NCBI GenBank assembly: GCA_036395115.1
Contig: DASWDU010000034.1
Span: 14,941 to 78,940 of the forward strand
DNA length: 64,000 bases
From: Thermoplasmata archaeon
Lineage (GTDB): Archaea > Thermoplasmatota > Thermoplasmata > RBG-16-68-12
Direction: 5' to 3'
The notes beneath the pieces were generated by a model. The model was given only the letters and a program-made list of their open reading frames with translations, had not been told where the DNA came from and ran no database searches. Both the position numbers and the translations under genes were made by a program. Within the stretch, counting starts at the first letter, position 1. The number at the start of each line of letters is the position of its first letter. Shown here piece by piece: positions 21,243-25,030 of the stretch.

Positions 21243-21821
21243 TTGACGGCCGTGATGCTGCGCAAACCCACGATGGACCCGGAGTCGAAGACCTACAAGT
21301 TCAAGATCTGCCTTGTGGGGGAAGAGGGCGTCGGCAAGACGAGCCTCATCCATCGTTTCGTGTCCGGTGCGTTCGACGAGTCGTACATCCGCACACTCGG
21401 GGCCGTCGTCTCGAAGAAGACCGTCGCCCTGGGATCGATGCACGGTCGGCCGGTCCAGGTCGACATGATGATCCTCGACATTATGGGCAAGCGGACGTTC
21501 TTGCAGCTGTTCAAGGAAGCGTACTTCCACGGCGCGAAGGGCGTCCTCGCGGTGTTCGACATGACCCGCGCCGCCTCGTTGCGCGACCTGACGAAGTGGA
21601 TCGACGGCGTGCGGGACTCCGTCGGCCCGATCCCGGTGTACGCGCTCGGCAACAAGACCGACCTGACGCAACGCCGCGAGGCGACGCCGGAGGAAGCCTC
21701 GTCGATCCTGCGGTCGTACGAGTGCCCGATCCTGTACACGTCCGCGAAGACGGGCGACAACGTCGAGCAGGCGTTCCAAGGCCTCGCGAAGACGATCGTC
21801 GAGTCGAGCGTCACCGAGTAA
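21243..21821 (+). CDS. Ras/Rab-like small GTPase with non-canonical switch II
   Basis: G1 'GEEGVGKTS', switch I 'YIRTLG', G3 'DIMGKR' (DxxG with the catalytic Gln position replaced), G4 'NKTD', G5 'TSAK'. The true start may be the internal Met 'MDPESK' near 21273. Confidence 0.75.
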
Positions 21822-21871
21822 CGCCGCAACCATCTTATACGCACCGGCGTTTGAAACCGCCCGAGGGTTTC

Positions 21872-23551
21872 ATGCGGGACGCCGACGAGCGCCGCTCGCT
21901 CGAGAAGGAACGGAAGCGGTGGGAGGAGACGACGCTCAAGGACGCCCTGAAGGCCCTCCCCGAGCGCCGCAAGGAGTTCCTGACGACGTCAAGCCGCGCC
22001 GTCAAGCGGCTGTACACGCCCCTCGATGTGGCCGACAAGCCGTCGGCGGAGCGCCTCGGCGCGGCCGGCGAATTCCCCTTCACCCGCGGCATCCATCCCA
22101 CGATGTACCGCGGCCGCCTCTGGACGATGCGGATGTTCGCCGGCTACGGGAGCGCAGAAGACACGAACGAGCGGTTCAAGTACCTCATCGCCCACGGCGA
22201 GACGGGCCTGAGCGTCGCCTTCGACATGCCGACGCTGTACGGATACGACACGGACGACGACGAGGCGAAAGGCGAGTTCGGCACGTGCGGCGTGGCGGTC
22301 TCGTCCCGCGAGGACATGAAGATCCTGTTCAACGGGATCGACGTTGGCGGCGTGAGCACGTCGATGACGATCAACTCGCCCGCGAGCGTGATCTGGGCGA
22401 TGTACCTCGCGATGGCCGAGGAACGCGGGGTCTCTTGGTCCGGGCTCCGGGGCACGATCCAGAACGACATCCTGAAGGAGTACCAGGCGCAGAAGGAGTG
22501 GATCTTCCCGCCCGAGCCGTCGATGCGCCTCGTCGTCGACACGTTCGAGTTCGGTTCGGCCTCGGTGCCGCAGTGGAACACGATCTCGATCAGCGGCTAC
22601 CACATCCGCGAGGCCGGCGCGACGGCGGCGCAGGAGCTCGCCTTCACCCTCGCGAACGGCATGGAATACGTCCGGTGGGGGATCGACCGCGGCCTCGCCG
22701 TCGACAACTTCGCCCCCCGGCTGTCGTTCTTCTTCAACGCGCACAACGACCTCTTCGAGGAGCTCGCGAAGTACCGGGCCGCCCGGCGGATCTGGGCGCG
22801 GGAGATGCGCGACACCTTCGGCGCGAAGAGTCCACGCTCCTGGCTGTTGCGCTTCCACGCGCAGACGGCCGGGGTGAGCCTGACGGCCCAGCAGCCGGAG
22901 GTCAACATCGTCCGCACGACGGTGCAGGCGCTCGCCGCCGTCCTCGGCGGCACGCAGTCGCTGCACACGAACGCGTACGACGAGGCGTACCAGGTGCCGA
23001 ACGAGAAGGCGGCGCGGATCGCCCTCCGGACGCAGCAGATTCTCGCGCACGAGAGCGGCGTCGCCAACACGGTCGACCCGCTCGGCGGCTCGTACTTCCT
23101 CGAGGCGCTGACGGACGAACTCGAGGAGGACGCGTACCGCTACTTCGACCGCATCGCCGGCCTGGGCGGCGTGATCCCGGCGATCCGGAAGGGGTTCTTC
23201 CAGCAGGAGATCGCGAACTCCGCGTACCGCTACCAGCGGGAGATCGAGGACCGCGAACGGATCATCGTCGGCGTCAACGACTTCGTCGTCGACGAGCAGT
23301 CCGAGGTCGAGCCACTCCGCGTCTCCGAGGCGTCGTTCCGGGGACAGCTCGAGCGGCTCCGCCGGATCCGCCGCGTTCGGGACGCGAAGAAGTACTCCCG
23401 CGCGATGGAGCGGCTTCGGACCGGGTGTGAAGGCGACGACAATACGATGCCGCTCATCCTCGACGCGGTGCGCGCGAAGGCGACGCTCGGCGAGATCTGC
23501 GACGTGATGCGCGAGGTCTTCGGCGTCTGGGAGGAGCCGCTGCTCTACTGA
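21872..23551 (+). CDS. mcmA1: Methylmalonyl-CoA mutase, catalytic (N-terminal) subunit
   Basis: 559 aa: '...[36 protein letters not shown]...' and '[14 protein letters not shown]'. Confidence 0.9.
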
Positions 23552-23558
23552 GGACCCC

Positions 23559-23957
23559 ATGCCGAAGAAGATCCGCGTGCTCATCGCGAAGCCTGGCCTG
23601 GACGGCCACGACCGCGGGGCGAAGGTCGTCGCGCGGGCGTTGCGCGACGCGGGGATGGAGGTCATCTATACGGGGCTGCGGCAGACGCCGGAGGACATCG
23701 TCGAGGCCGCGATCCAGGAGGACGTCGACGCGATCGGGCTGTCGTCCCTGAGCGGCGCGCACATGACGCTCTTCCCGGCCGTTGTCCGGCTGCTCAAGAA
23801 GCGGAAGGCGGGCGACATCATCGTGGTGGCCGGAGGGATCATCCCGGAGGAAGACGTTCCGAAGCTCAAGAAGGCGGGCATCCGGATGGTGTTCGGTCCG
23901 GGGACGACGCTCGGCGACATCGTCGCGTTCTTCGAGAAGGCGGGCAAAGATGCGTGA
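23559..23957 (+). CDS. mcmA2: Methylmalonyl-CoA mutase, B12-binding subunit
   Basis: '[35 protein letters not shown]' contains the DxHxxG cobalamin-binding motif. Confidence 0.9.
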
Positions 23958-24975
23958 GCGGGTGTCCCGCAAGAAGCCGTCCGTCCGACGATCGCGGGAT
24001 TCCGTCCGCGGGCTCGTCGAGGCCCTCCTCCGCGGAGATAAGCGGGCGGCGGGAAAGGTCATCTCGCTCATCGAGGACGACGAACCGGAGGCCGTCGAGG
24101 CCGTCGCCCGGATATTCCCGCACACGGGCCGCGCCCACGTCGTCGGGTTCACGGGACCGCCCGGAGCGGGAAAGAGTTCCCTCATCAACCGCCTGGTCCG
24201 CACGTTCCGCGGGAAGGACAAGAAGGTCGGCGTCGTCGCGGTCGATCCGACGTCCCCATATTCGGGCGGCGCGGTGCTAGGCGACCGCATCCGCATGGCG
24301 GACACGGGCGTCGATCCGGGGGTCTTCATCCGCTCCATGGCGACGCGCGGGCACGCGGGCGGACTGGCCCTCGCCACGTTCGACGCGGTGCGGGTCCTCG
24401 ACGCGCTCGGCATGGACGTCGTGTTCGTCGAGACGGTCGGCGCGGGGCAGAGCGAGGTAGAGATCGCGACGCGCGCGCACACGACAGTCGTCGTCGAGAT
24501 GCCCCTGACCGGGGACGTGGTCCAGACGATGAAAGCAGGCATCCTGGAGATCGGCGACGTCTACGTCGTGAACAAGGTGGATCTGGGCAACGACGACGTC
24601 CTCGTGGCGAACCTGACGTTTCAGCTGCAAGCCCGAGACGGCTGGACCCCGCCGATCGTTCGGACGATCGCGACGGACGGCCGCGGAGTCGACGAGCTCG
24701 CCGACGCCCTAGTGCGCCATGCGGAGTTCCTCGACCGAACGGGCCTCCGACGAAAGCGGGAAGTGGCGCGGGCCCGGCTCGAAATCCTGGAGAACGCACA
24801 GCGATCGCTCGCGCGTCGGGTCGAGGACACGTCCCGGTTGGGCGTAGCGTTCGATAGGCTCGCGCAGGAGGTCGCCGATCGCCGGATGGACCCGCACACC
24901 GCGGCCCTGAATCTCCTGGAGCGCCGAAACAAGAGGGCCCGCAAGAGTTCCGGAGACGCTCGGGGTGGGATTTGA
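23950..24975 (+). CDS. meaB: MeaB/ArgK-type G3E GTPase (methylmalonyl-CoA mutase chaperone)
   Basis: Walker A 'GPPGAGKSS'; '...[12 protein letters not shown]...NKVDL...'. Overlaps mcmA2 by 8 nt. Its 3' end overlaps the antisense tRNA. Confidence 0.85.
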
Positions 24976-25030
24976 ACCCACGATCTGCGACTTAGGAGGT
25001 CGCTGCCTTGTCCGTGCTGGGCCACCCGAG
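24957..25030 (-). tRNA. tRNA-Arg (anticodon CCU)
   Basis: Cloverleaf read from the minus strand: acceptor GCUCGGG/CCCGAGC, anticodon arm GCGAC-CUCCUAA-GUCGC, T-arm GUGGG-UUCAAAU-CCCAC, discriminator G, no encoded CCA. Confidence 0.8.

Follow-up and report, generated by a model that had tools for sequence, protein, structure and literature searches.

The 64-kb stretch of Thermoplasmata DNA analysed here (the window) contains an acyl-CoA/B12-mutase gene cluster in which two thiolase-like proteins, two DUF35-type proteins, a small GTPase, both subunits of a B12-dependent mutase and a MeaB-type chaperone are encoded in that order on the forward strand (Table 1). An acyl-CoA dehydrogenase gene flanks the cluster; its NCBIfam alignment begins at ORF residue 41. 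The thiolase-like proteins are 38% identical in pairwise alignment; thl2 scores 667 bits against NCBIfam PRK06065, above the cut-off of 455, and thl1 scores 482.6 bits against PRK06066, below the cut-off of 516. The start of meaB overlaps the small-subunit stop by 8 nt, and a convergent tRNA-Arg(CCT) gene overlaps its 3' end. The preliminary description had placed a G3E GTPase in this operon, and both profile matches to MeaB agree.

Table 1. Features of the cluster and of the small GTPase gene, in window coordinates.
Feature	Position	Strand	Basis
Acyl-CoA dehydrogenase, flanking the cluster	15946..17088 (start approximate)	-	NCBIfam butyryl/acryloyl-CoA dehydrogenase-type, best 3.1e-149
Thiolase-like protein 1 (thl1)	17896..19047	+	Pfam Thiolase_C_1 4e-28
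Thiolase-like protein 2 (thl2)	19047..20207	+	Pfam Thiolase_C_1 4.7e-28, Thiolase_N 8.2e-10
DUF35-type protein a (ChsH2-like zinc ribbon + OB fold)	20204..20725	+	zf-ChsH2 4.1e-08, OB_ChsH2_C 2.5e-11
DUF35-type protein b	20725..21204	+	zf-ChsH2 4.4e-10, OB_ChsH2_C 1.6e-08
TATA-like box TTGATAA, putative GTPase promoter	21221..21227	+	centred ~31 nt upstream of ATG 21255
Rab-like small GTPase, 188 aa	21255..21821	+	Pfam Ras 3.7e-34
G1/P-loop GEEGVGKTS	21318..21344	+	read from sequence
G3/switch II DIMGKR	21477..21494	+	read from sequence, aligned to Rabs
G4 NKTD	21651..21662	+	read from sequence; N, K, D invariant
G5 SAK	21741..21749	+	read from sequence; invariant
TATA-like box TCTTATAC, putative mutase-operon promoter	21833..21840	+	centred ~35 nt upstream of ATG 21872
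Short palindrome GTTTGAAAC, between TATA-like box and mutase start codon	21849..21857	+	spacer comparison
Mutase large (substrate-binding) subunit	21872..23551	+	PF01642 1.3e-219; TIGR00641 740.8 bits
Mutase small subunit (B12-binding, DGHDRG motif)	23559..23957	+	PF02310 8.7e-30; TIGR00640 179.6 bits
MeaB-type G3E GTPase chaperone	23950..24975	+	PF03308 8.5e-87; TIGR00750 337.9 bits, cut-off 240.75
tRNA-Arg(CCT)	24955..25032	-	ARAGORN; Rfam tRNA 60.5 bits

The second, eukaryote-like small GTPase that had been proposed upstream of the mutase operon is indeed encoded there on the same strand, within an ORF at 21243-21821 whose stop codon (21819-21821) lies 50 nt before the mutase ATG. Translation probably begins at ATG 21255, with the N-terminus MLRKPT-MDP. 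This start is preferred over ATG 21273 (182 aa) because the second Met reads ATA in two relatives (L002 and L003); TTG 21243 is a further alternative. After Ras, the Pfam families matched are Roc (1.3e-21, second best) and Arf (3e-07), and the search returned no MeaB or cobW match. The best PDB sequence matches are Rab6B, Rab2A, Rab43 and Rab8A at 1e-25, and Foldseek with the AF2 model (pLDDT 81.3) retrieves Rab35, Rab1 and Rab8 with TM scores of 0.72-0.76. The protein is therefore a member of the Ras superfamily, with Rabs nearest by both sequence and fold. Another P-loop family, such as a MeaB/G3E paralogue, or an ORF that is spurious or in decay might be suspected solely because the cluster has another GTPase and DNA with 67% GC contains many spurious ORFs. 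The profile and structural matches, 3980 homologues, dN/dS values of 0.07-0.24 and an intact ORF in all 52 mutase-linked loci rule this alternative out, leaving it a negligible probability.

The G1, G4 and G5 motifs named previously can be read directly from the sequence and, together with G2 (switch I, YIRTLG), are all intact. Within G1, the residues G, V, G, K, T and S are invariant among 17 orthologues, and a Glu occupies the position of Ras Gly12. The reported alteration of switch II is likewise confirmed: in phmmer alignments DIMGKR pairs with DTAGQE of Rab6B, Rab2A and Rab43, placing Lys73 (AAG, 21489-21491) at the position of the catalytic Gln (Ras Gln61). A basic residue is fixed here throughout the mutase-linked clade (52 of 52 copies), as Lys in the window's subgroup (K group) and as Arg in sister lineages (R groups). 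More distant relatives mostly carry Gln, and among non-nested paralogues the position holds Q, S, A, H or E. A basic residue here is not confined to the mutase-linked copies; paralogues in other surroundings have Lys or Arg as well (L037, L038, L059, L064, P0127 and P0133).

A precedent for a mechanism using a basic residue is the ROC domain of LRRK2, in which Arg1398 at the Q61-equivalent position is proposed to act as a gamma-phosphate sensor driving switch II ordering (PMC13345514). That Arg arose independently, whereas the window's subgroup has Lys, and LRRK2 is a multidomain Roco protein with COR and kinase domains, in contrast to the free 188-residue G domain without COR found here. By analogy, the Lys or Arg that replaced the canonical hydrolytic Gln would contact the gamma-phosphate and order switch II in the GTP state. 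This could produce a long-lived 'on' state, with hydrolysis dependent on a partner protein.

The GTPase is a real, conserved variant of archaeal Rab-like (Rup-type) GTPases. As in the archaeal Rab-like proteins described by Surkont & Pereira-Leal (2016, PMC4915359), there is a single small G domain with best matches to eukaryotic Rabs, and it shares the short C-terminus without prenylation cysteines that characterises all of them. The authors already listed one Rab-like gene each for Aciduliprofundum and a Thermoplasmatales archaeon. That study gave no gene-context link, whereas the GTPase gene here is fixed in an acyl-CoA/B12-mutase cluster. A Thorarchaeota Rab (PDB 7ezb) matches at 4.6e-23 with a TM score of 0.74; Asgard Rab-like proteins retain the catalytic Gln (all ten sequences compared), in contrast to the Lys/Arg of the Thermoplasmata clade. 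The Rup family, Ras superfamily GTPases of unknown function in prokaryotes with no member characterised as of 2014 (Wuichet & Sogaard-Andersen 2014, PMC4316618), is similar in being prokaryotic and Ras-like, in keeping the DxxG Asp and in its lack of coupling to MglB. The G3 Gln is absent from Group 1 Rup proteins too (the authors suggest that it is provided in trans; PMC4316618), but these proteins are bacterial and encoded with signal-transduction genes, whereas the Thermoplasmata clade has a metabolic neighbourhood. Group 2 comes from Crenarchaeota and lacks conserved neighbours, and the Thermoplasmata clade falls outside both groups. The cluster may offer a link between a known enzyme system and a class of proteins whose function in prokaryotes is unknown.

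Archaeal small Ras-family GTPases had been expected to pair with MglB/Roadblock partners. This holds for MglA, likewise a small prokaryotic Ras-like protein, which lacks the DxxG Asp and is encoded with MglB, but not for Rup, in which 0 of 121 members are coupled to MglB (PMC4316618). The present GTPase has the DxxG motif and, as first described, no adjacent Roadblock/LC7 gene; two sensitivity-limited searches detected none in the window. Some paralogues nevertheless adjoin Roadblock-related proteins. Neighbours of paralogues include a Roadblock protein, TPR giants, a permease-Usp fusion and surface proteins with a conserved tail domain. Several paralogues, among them Lys types P0127 and P0133 and Arg type L064, lie beside large single-pass surface proteins that share a conserved cytoplasmic tail homologous to part of a Roadblock/LC7 protein. 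Neighbour pairing is common in this family, and we count it in favour of a partner within the cluster. The same paralogues also suggest an independent signalling switch untied to its neighbours, with a membrane receptor or Roadblock-type regulator encoded elsewhere as partner and the slot between two operons an accident inherited within a single lineage whose gene order changes slowly. Consistent with this, in three lineages (L031, L041, L055) the mutase-linked GTPase gene has gained a surface-protein gene as its immediate neighbour by insertion. However, no tail-domain or Roadblock partner was detected within 6 kb of any syntenic copy or in the 64-kb window, and we consider an independent switch credible but less likely than not.

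The enzyme downstream is probably of the isobutyryl-CoA mutase (ICM) type. The large subunit has HcmA (4r3u) as its best PDB match, and its Phe89, Ala and Gln207 align to Tyr89, Ala and Arg207 of methylmalonyl-CoA mutase (MCM) and to Ile, Asp and Gln of HcmA. Of the 47 related loci that could be read, 46 have this F/A/Q signature. Both residues with which MCM binds the carboxylate are missing, and Phe and Gln at the Tyr89 and Arg207 positions suggest that the original 'mcm' label of the operon is probably incorrect. A similar arrangement of split large and small subunits with a MeaB-like protein occurs in the ICM cluster of Syntrophothermus lipocalidus (Slip_0757-0760), proposed to isomerise isobutyryl-CoA to butyryl-CoA ahead of beta-oxidation (PMC5017805). 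The bacterial cluster contains an adenosyltransferase gene and no small GTPase gene, whereas the archaeal cluster contains the Rab-like GTPase gene and no adenosyltransferase gene.

MeaB/MMAA and the IcmF G domain are also GTPases encoded with B12 acyl-CoA mutases, but they are SIMIBI/G3E dimers with a switch III, whereas the small GTPase has a TRAFAC Ras-like fold. If it were a dedicated second G-protein of B12 handling, it would load or remove adenosylcobalamin on the mutase together with MeaB, for example by regulating the MeaB GTPase cycle. The position directly upstream of the mutase-MeaB genes, with possible read-through, and the missing adenosyltransferase gene agree with such a role. 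However, characterised MeaB/MMAA/IcmF systems need no other GTPase, and fusions of the GTPase with MeaB or a B12 domain were not seen except in one chimeric sequence (P0114). In such systems it is the mutase that serves as GAP for MeaB (PMC10481361). Distance correlations bear on this proposal in both directions. Across all 27 complete loci, the top mirror-tree partner of the GTPase is MeaB (partial r 0.56, permutation p = 0.0005), but within the K group this correlation falls to 0.22-0.32, and a second B12 G-protein appears improbable.

Conservation of gene order was assessed in GTDB species-representative genomes of this clade, in which 50 loci have enough downstream DNA to be informative. 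The order of two thiolase-like genes, two DUF35 genes, GTPase, mutase and meaB is kept in 48 of these 50 loci, while identity ranges over 96-44% for the GTPase and 95-68% for the mutase. The GTPase-mutase adjacency is conserved, as is the position of thl1. The persistence of the slot down to 44% GTPase identity, while the downstream flank is replaced, argues against an inherited accident; many loci in which the cluster holds have lost the FKBP-TFB gene downstream, L023-L034 and L044-L050 among them. On the other hand, the acyl-CoA dehydrogenase gene is found upstream of thl1 in L001-L020 and L043-L053 at 54-90% identity, and FKBP-TFB is kept in some loci, suggesting that the synteny is partly regional. 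All syntenic genomes (about fifty, uncultured) belong to one Thermoplasmata lineage, and vertical inheritance accounts for part of the conserved order. Purifying selection on the GTPase matches in strength that acting on the mutase (dN/dS 0.09-0.18; MeaB 0.11-0.26), which also argues against a switch untied to its neighbours.

The junctions on either side of the GTPase gene are not protected, which counts against a partner in the cluster: unrelated genes have inserted beside it in five lineages, downstream in L031 and L046 and upstream in L041, L045 and L055. In the first two, the GTPase gene remained with the thiolase-like block when DNA entered before the mutase gene, as expected if the partner that the GTPase regulates or helps to assemble is the thiolase-like/DUF35 complex encoded upstream and not the mutase. 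Of the 52 clade loci, 49 have the DUF35b gene next to that of the GTPase, and partial correlations within the K group are highest with thl1 (0.48), DUF35b (0.49) and DUF35a (0.38). However, in the other three lineages the insertion lies on the opposite side and the GTPase gene stayed by the mutase gene where DNA was available. Over all loci the correlations with thl and DUF35 are near zero. The top partner differs between all loci and the K group, and the mirror-tree test yields no stable partner. We are aware of no other GTPase that acts with thiolase/DUF35 complexes, and there is little chance that this complex is the partner.

Taken together, these data lead us to favour, tentatively and with a probability of roughly 35%, a Rab-like GTPase that serves a protein of the acyl-CoA/B12-mutase cluster as a regulatory or docking switch. 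The GTPase would be a soluble, single-domain protein that binds guanine nucleotide and switches conformation, its gene a fixed member of an acyl-CoA catabolic cluster. Its most likely role would be that of a nucleotide-state-dependent regulatory or docking subunit, presumably interacting, physically or functionally, with the mutase, MeaB or the thiolase-like complex. The first candidate partner is the mutase-MeaB machinery directly downstream, and it is plausible that the GTPase and the mutase are functionally connected. Such a switch could couple flux through the B12 enzyme, or its assembly, to the GTP/GDP state of the cell. To our knowledge, no acyl-CoA mutase system in the MeaB/MMAA/IcmF literature uses a Ras-type GTPase.

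How the GTPase gene is transcribed bears on both this regulatory or docking role and an independent switch. The cluster's only long spacers (50-130 nt) are the two that flank this gene; elsewhere genes overlap or lie less than 20 nt apart. Every subgroup has an AT-rich box at a matching position upstream of the GTPase gene (examples are GGCTTGATAACC, GCCGTTATAAGCC, GCTTTCTTAAGCC and GGGTTTTAATCG), in a spacer that otherwise varies. Before the mutase gene, GCAAYCATCTTATAGG is conserved in the K group, and the R groups have TTAAATAG, TAAAAATAG and CTTAATTAAG at 32-38 nt before the start codon. These conserved TATA-like boxes, which we infer to act as promoters, suggest that the GTPase gene probably has its own promoter. 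Together with the long spacers, they make separate transcription units for the GTPase and mutase genes possible, as an independent switch would predict. Neither spacer contains a T-tract terminator, so read-through into the mutase genes is possible, which weighs against independence. A GTPase serving the cluster would be expressed from its own promoter, with transcripts probably running on into the mutase genes. The palindrome GTTTGAAAC before the mutase start codon may be an operator. It is the sole exact copy in the window, where near-matches are not above chance, and YTTSAAA is kept at its position in K-group spacers.

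The small GTPase encoded within the acyl-CoA mutase cluster is a full-length Ras-superfamily protein, as the preliminary description had proposed. Its residues 11-176 align with positions 1-161 of the 162-position Pfam Ras model PF00071, covering the full domain (118.1 bits, cut-off 21.6, E = 3.7e-34), and the generic small_GTP domain is the sole NCBIfam match. The closest solved structures by sequence are Rab6B, Rab2A, Rab43, Rab8A and Rab1 (E ~1e-25, ~30-34% identity). The best 60 PDB sequence matches are nearly all Rabs, with one entry generically named as a GTP-binding protein; the Thorarchaeota Rab 7ezb is among the PDB matches. 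The best 50 Foldseek matches to an AlphaFold2 model (pLDDT 81.3, pTM 0.78) are exclusively Rabs, with TM scores of 0.67-0.76. Across 17 orthologues, the following are invariant: G1 (GEEGVGKTS); the switch I Thr (YIRTLG); the Asp and Gly of G3; NKTD of G4; and SAK of G5. The Glu that replaces Ras Gly12 (GEEG) is widespread in the archaeal family as a whole and is therefore not diagnostic. The possibility that the gene encodes a MeaB paralogue or a member of another P-loop family was rejected, as PF03308, PF02492 and TIGR00750 are unmatched at E <= 0.01 (Pfam) or 1e-5 (NCBIfam) and there is no cobW match.

The RabF1-F5 motifs that Pereira-Leal and Seabra are said to have defined in 2000 (IGVDF, KLQIWDTAGQE, RFrsiT, YYRGA and LVYDIT) appear closely matched at RabF4 and RabF5 only, in a by-eye reading of the Rab6B alignment. 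The chain ends ...TIVESSVTE with no Cys in the last 30 residues, and the last helix of the model reaches residue 181 of 182, with no tail beyond it. This indicates a soluble protein that is not prenylated, which is also what has been reported of other archaeal Rab-like proteins (PMC4915359). The features of the Rup family (PMC4316618) are all found: a prokaryotic source, a length of 188 residues (<240), a retained Asp in DIMG, no coupling to MglB and, with branching judged by profile scores, a best match to Rab/Ras rather than MglA. MglA proteins, in contrast, lack that Asp in G3 and are encoded next to mglB, whereas here Asp69 is invariant and no Roadblock gene is adjacent. Roco proteins carry ROC then COR in one polypeptide; here the Roc profile matches at 1.3e-21, but the 188 residues hold no further domain.

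The altered switch II that had been described from the first inspection is also borne out. The G3 motif reads DIMGKR, and Lys73 aligns with the catalytic Gln of Rab6B, Rab2A and Rab43, placing a Lys where Ras has Gln61. A basic residue occupies this position in 52/52 mutase-linked copies: Lys in the group that includes the window (the K group; DIMGKR or DIIGKR) and Arg in two more distant R groups (DIMGRR, DIMGRK, DIMGRQ). These form three supported groups in a neighbour-joining tree (bootstrap 59-82 for the K group, 100 and 80 for the R groups), united by a weak node (25%). Nested in the three groups are six unlinked paralogues with K, K, R, R, Q and Q at the position; the remaining Thermoplasmata paralogues have Q, S, A, H or E, and Asgard relatives have Q in 10/10. 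Among the nearest 150 representatives of 50%-identity clusters drawn from 1.8 billion proteins, Q is found in 80 domains and K or R in 18, a figure from a regular expression that also caught a few false matches. P0127 and P0133, two representatives of the Lys type, are located outside the mutase context. A basic residue here is therefore unusual without being confined to mutase-linked copies.

The gene occupies a fixed slot. With one genome scanned for each GTDB species, 149 relatives were obtained, and among the best 80, examined with 6-kb flanks, 52 loci carry the GTPase of this clade. The related contigs all come from uncultured Thermoplasmata of soil, sediment and groundwater, under database labels that vary ('Methanobacteriota' or Methanomassiliicoccales). 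The mutase gene follows within 200 nt at 48 of the 52 loci; two loci end too early and two (L031, L046) have inserted DNA. This answers the suggestion that adjacency be sought in relatives, and the 50-nt gap first reported in the window is exact. On the other side, DUF35b precedes the GTPase within 200 nt at 49/52 loci, the others having insertions (L041, L055) or an isochorismatase gene upstream (L045). Across the set, identities fall from 96 to 44% for the GTPase, 95 to 68% for the mutase and 92 to 46% for MeaB; the outer flanks (FKBP-TFB downstream, ACAD upstream) are less stable and occur in some subgroups only. The slot has thus been retained through considerable divergence, but inside a single lineage. 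The reading frame is intact in 52/52 loci, and its dN/dS of 0.07-0.24 (ten comparisons with the window) is in the same range as that of the mutase large subunit (0.09-0.18), that of DUF35b being higher (0.17-0.41). Taken together, the intact frames and low dN/dS indicate a functional, strongly constrained gene; with the number of homologues, they rule out a spurious or decaying frame in GC-rich DNA (59-70% GC across the 64-kb window).

Coordinates of features in the window and at related loci (L numbers; positions within each locus)
Feature	Location	Position	Strand	Remark
Big_7 surface protein gene	window	618-2666		neighbour of transposase gene
DDE_3/HTH transposase gene (IS element)	window	2608-3699	-	adjoins Big_7 gene
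Two tandem CitMHS-family transporter genes	window	5109-8447		
DEDD-exonuclease-like small gene	window	17209-~17790	-	N-terminus ...YYFDTETTG...; between acyl-CoA dehydrogenase and thl1
thl1, thiolase-like	window	17896-19047	+	paralogue of thl2
thl2, thiolase-like	window	19047-20207	+	paralogue of thl1
DUF35a, DUF35/ChsH2-type zinc-ribbon-OB protein	window	20204-20725	+	
DUF35b, DUF35/ChsH2-type zinc-ribbon-OB protein	window	20725-21204	+	
Small GTPase	window	21255 or 21273 to 21821	+	
Palindrome GTTTGAAAC	window	21849-21857		
Acyl-CoA mutase large subunit	window	21872-23551	+	
Mutase small subunit, B12-binding	window	23559-23957	+	
MeaB	window	23950-24975	+	matches MeaB/G3E profiles
tRNA-Arg(CCT)	window	24955-25032	-	convergent with meaB, overlapping its last ~20 nt
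Putative tail-domain/Roadblock module	L082	4307-8398		
Putative tail-domain/Roadblock module	L083	5638-8301		
Putative tail-domain/Roadblock module	L051	626-4420	-	
Putative tail-domain/Roadblock module	L064	4695-5879		
Inserted membrane-anchored surface protein	L031	3001-5607		
Inserted membrane-anchored surface protein	L041	3206-5908		
Inserted membrane-anchored surface protein	L055	604-2205	-	
Region of the Fic/DOC-family gene and its flanking repeats	L046	6417-7993		
Fic/DOC-family gene	L046	6712-7779		within 6417-7993

The eight cluster genes lie on the forward strand at 17.9-25.0 kb, with an acyl-CoA dehydrogenase gene upstream on the opposite strand. The position of the DEDD-exonuclease-like gene is apparently retained in relatives, to judge from a ~700-nt gap there.

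The mutase itself had been named as methylmalonyl-CoA mutase (mcm), a label that the active-site residues make improbable. The large subunit scores 605 bits against the NCBIfam MCM equivalog, under its cut-off of 876; among solved structures, HcmA, a 2-hydroxyisobutyryl-CoA mutase, is closest to it (560 bits, versus 479 for human MCM). In MCM, Tyr89 and Arg207 bind the substrate carboxylate (P. shermanii numbering; the P. shermanii chain aligned is the Y89F mutant 5req). The human and M. tuberculosis enzymes carry Tyr ('WTIRQYAGFS') and Arg ('EFMVRNTY') here, with Ala at a third, Ala/Asp position; HcmA (4r3u) has Ile ('RQIAGFG'), Asp ('GISTDFD') and Gln at Tyr89, Ala/Asp and Arg207; and the window mutase has Phe (WTMRMFAG), Ala (GLSVAFD) and Gln (EYQAQKEW). 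Among related loci L001-L062, this Phe/Ala/Gln pattern recurs at 46 of the 47 in which all three positions are readable. The specificity residues of HcmA are reportedly Ile90 and Asp117 (Kurteva-Yaneva, 2015); the window mutase reads 'RMFAGYG' and 'GLSVAFD', with neither of these residues. Phe with Gln is said by Ratnatilleke (1999), Cracan (2010) and Jost (2015) to be the signature of isobutyryl-CoA mutase, reportedly as Phe80/Gln198 in ICM and Phe598/Gln742 in IcmF. The Phe and Gln of the window mutase fall at native IcmF positions ~598-599 and 742, as read from aligned ranges only on a tagged chain (4xc6; 20-residue tag, 1113 vs 1093 residues). The enzyme is probably of the isobutyryl-CoA-mutase type. 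In syntrophic bacteria, isobutyryl-CoA/butyryl-CoA interconversion is described as feeding beta-oxidation (PMC5017805); by analogy, the cluster and the nearby acyl-CoA dehydrogenase would fit the same interconversion. Such a re-reading would shift the metabolic picture of these soil and sediment Thermoplasmata from propionate to valine or isobutyrate/butyrate.

At the region of the thiolase nucleophilic Cys, thl1 and thl2 read 'RPTCTV---SGDG' and 'YTRVFTGGGTGV', and the canonical residue may be absent from both. Such an absence would point to an aldolase of the Ltp2/ChsH2 type, or to a complex formed with both DUF35 proteins that is not thiolytic.

Genes within the cluster overlap or lie <20 nt apart, except on both sides of the GTPase, where the distances are 50-130 nt. 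Each of these spacers is variable and GC-rich apart from one AT-rich box, whose position is conserved. The boxes before the mutase gene are GCAAYCATCTTATAGG in the K group and TTAAATAG, TAAAAATAG and CTTAATTAAG in the R groups, centred 32-38 nt upstream of the start codon; those before the GTPase are GGCTTGATAACC, GCCGTTATAAGCC, GCTTTCTTAAGCC and GGGTTTTAATCG. For the GTPase, a conserved upstream ATG (MLR[RK]P[ST]...) and an ATA in place of the second Met at two related loci (L002, L003) place the start at 21255. Archaeal TATA boxes lie ~26 nt upstream of the transcription start; the spacings observed here fit that rule, implying short or absent leaders, and both boxes fit putative TATA boxes. 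The usual archaeal terminator is a run of T, and no run of five or more is present in either GTPase spacer, so read-through from the putative GTPase promoter into the mutase genes is possible. The arrangement fits three promoter-equipped units in fixed order, and on these sequence signals co-transcription of the GTPase with the mutase genes is neither proved nor excluded. The palindrome GTTTGAAAC lies 3' of the TATA-like box and 5' of the mutase start codon; K-group spacers of relatives retain it there as YTTSAAA, and it may be an operator. An operator shared among the cluster promoters was rejected: a single exact GTTTGAAAC occurs in the window, near-matches are not enriched, and nothing resembling it lies upstream of thl1.

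Unlinked paralogues of the GTPase at other loci have varied neighbours. They lie: upstream of an amino-acid permease-Usp fusion (L056, L057); downstream of a giant TPR protein (L065, L066, L069); next to an acyl-CoA-dehydrogenase-like gene and downstream of one for an aldo-keto reductase (L060); downstream of the gene for a Roadblock/LC7 protein (L064); or next to large single-pass surface proteins with CLIPPER/CARDB domains (L051, P0127/L082, P0133/L083). The cytoplasmic tails (~140 residues) of the L051, L082 and L083 surface proteins are homologous to one another and to the C-terminal half of the L064 Roadblock/LC7 protein, and may form a receptor-tail-GTPase module. As members of this GTPase family are typically found beside a likely partner, looking for the partner of the mutase-linked clade among its neighbours is reasonable. 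Tblastn and an HMM built from four tail domains gave no tail-domain or Roadblock partner, either in the window or in the 6-kb flanks of the GTPase at the 52 linked loci, in agreement with the first reading of this region.

In three lineages (L031, L041, L055) unrelated surface-protein genes have been inserted immediately next to the linked GTPase, on either side. The L041 insert has BNR and InlB B-repeats and that of L031 InlB B-repeats only, the two proteins being 43% identical; the L055 insert encodes an uncharacterised protein. At L046, a Fic/DOC-family gene lies between 109-nt direct repeats of the GTPase 3' end (94% identical), and the mutase genes are absent from the following 4 kb. Fic enzymes modify small GTPases, and the pairing may be coincidental. 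Because both junctions of the GTPase can evidently be broken, a signalling switch unrelated to its neighbours stays alive as an explanation, and is judged somewhat unlikely.

Taken in aggregate, the data make some functional link between the GTPase and the cluster slightly more likely than not, with a probability of roughly 55%. In its favour are a slot kept despite deep divergence, selection that equals in strength that on the enzymes, the missing terminator ahead of the mutase genes and the habitual neighbour pairing of the family. Against it stand: a putative promoter of the GTPase's own; the insertions on both sides; the restriction to one lineage; the identical basic substitution in other contexts; a co-evolution signal that is not robust; and characterised mutase systems, which offer no precedent. 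The co-evolution signal comes from mirror-tree analysis (partial correlations of pairwise distances among the eight cluster proteins, with permutation tests), which placed MeaB top over 27 loci (0.56) but thl1 and DUF35b top in the K group, with the mutase negative; as the result is not robust, it was not used as evidence.

The form of a functional link is less firmly indicated. A general regulatory switch, with mutase-MeaB as first candidate target, is a tentative model. More specifically, the protein might be a dedicated component of the B12 acyl-CoA mutase system of this Thermoplasmata lineage, a second G protein beside MeaB whose switch II Lys/Arg, as a gamma-phosphate sensor, would control how the mutase is loaded with cofactor, repaired, or assembled with the thiolase-like enzymes. 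A mutase accessory GTPase in this sense is unproven and, in so strong a form, improbable; if true, it would be the first function assigned to a Rup-type GTPase of prokaryotes and the first case of a Ras-like switch connected directly with a metabolic enzyme and the metallochaperone of that enzyme. A partnership with the thiolase-like/DUF35 complex and a specific cofactor-chaperone role are each very unlikely. No literature tying small GTPases to archaeal acyl-CoA mutases was found; the Rab-like proteins of archaea are mostly discussed as forerunners of eukaryotic trafficking GTPases. P0114 (221 residues), an apparent fusion, consists of GTPase residues 1-~141 followed in frame by mutase sequence from ~residue 41 onwards. 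It was rejected as a true fusion, since it lacks the G5 region and the mutase N-terminus and is a single member of unknown source, and is probably an assembly or deletion artefact.

Thermoplasmata Rab-like GTPases and Gln-less prokaryotic Ras-like GTPases are categories already known (PMC4915359, PMC4316618); no published description was found of the Lys/Arg clade, of the fixed slot it holds in a B12-mutase cluster or of how its promoters are arranged. In a 2014 survey, no prokaryotic Ras-like GTPase outside MglA had an experimentally assigned function (PMC4316618). Strongly conserved, and fixed in about fifty species-level genomes in a slot adjoining the well-understood system of B12 acyl-CoA mutase and MeaB, this clade offers a testable handle on an uncharacterised class. 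Arg1398 of LRRK2, at the Q61-equivalent position, is a proposed gamma-phosphate sensor that orders switch II (PMC13345514), and by analogy gamma-phosphate sensing and switch II ordering would be the most likely role of the Lys/Arg described here. The clade provides a natural, independently evolved Lys/Arg series bearing the same unusual substitution; at 188 residues, the GTPase should be easy to express, and it could be a minimal model of how hydrolysis and switching proceed when the catalytic Gln is missing. Among its close relatives are multi-GTPase proteins (P0130, of 1706 residues, P0121 and P0125) with three to six Ras-like stretches; each of the three G domains of P0130 reads D[LV]AGRE and so, like LRRK2, has Arg in place of Gln61.
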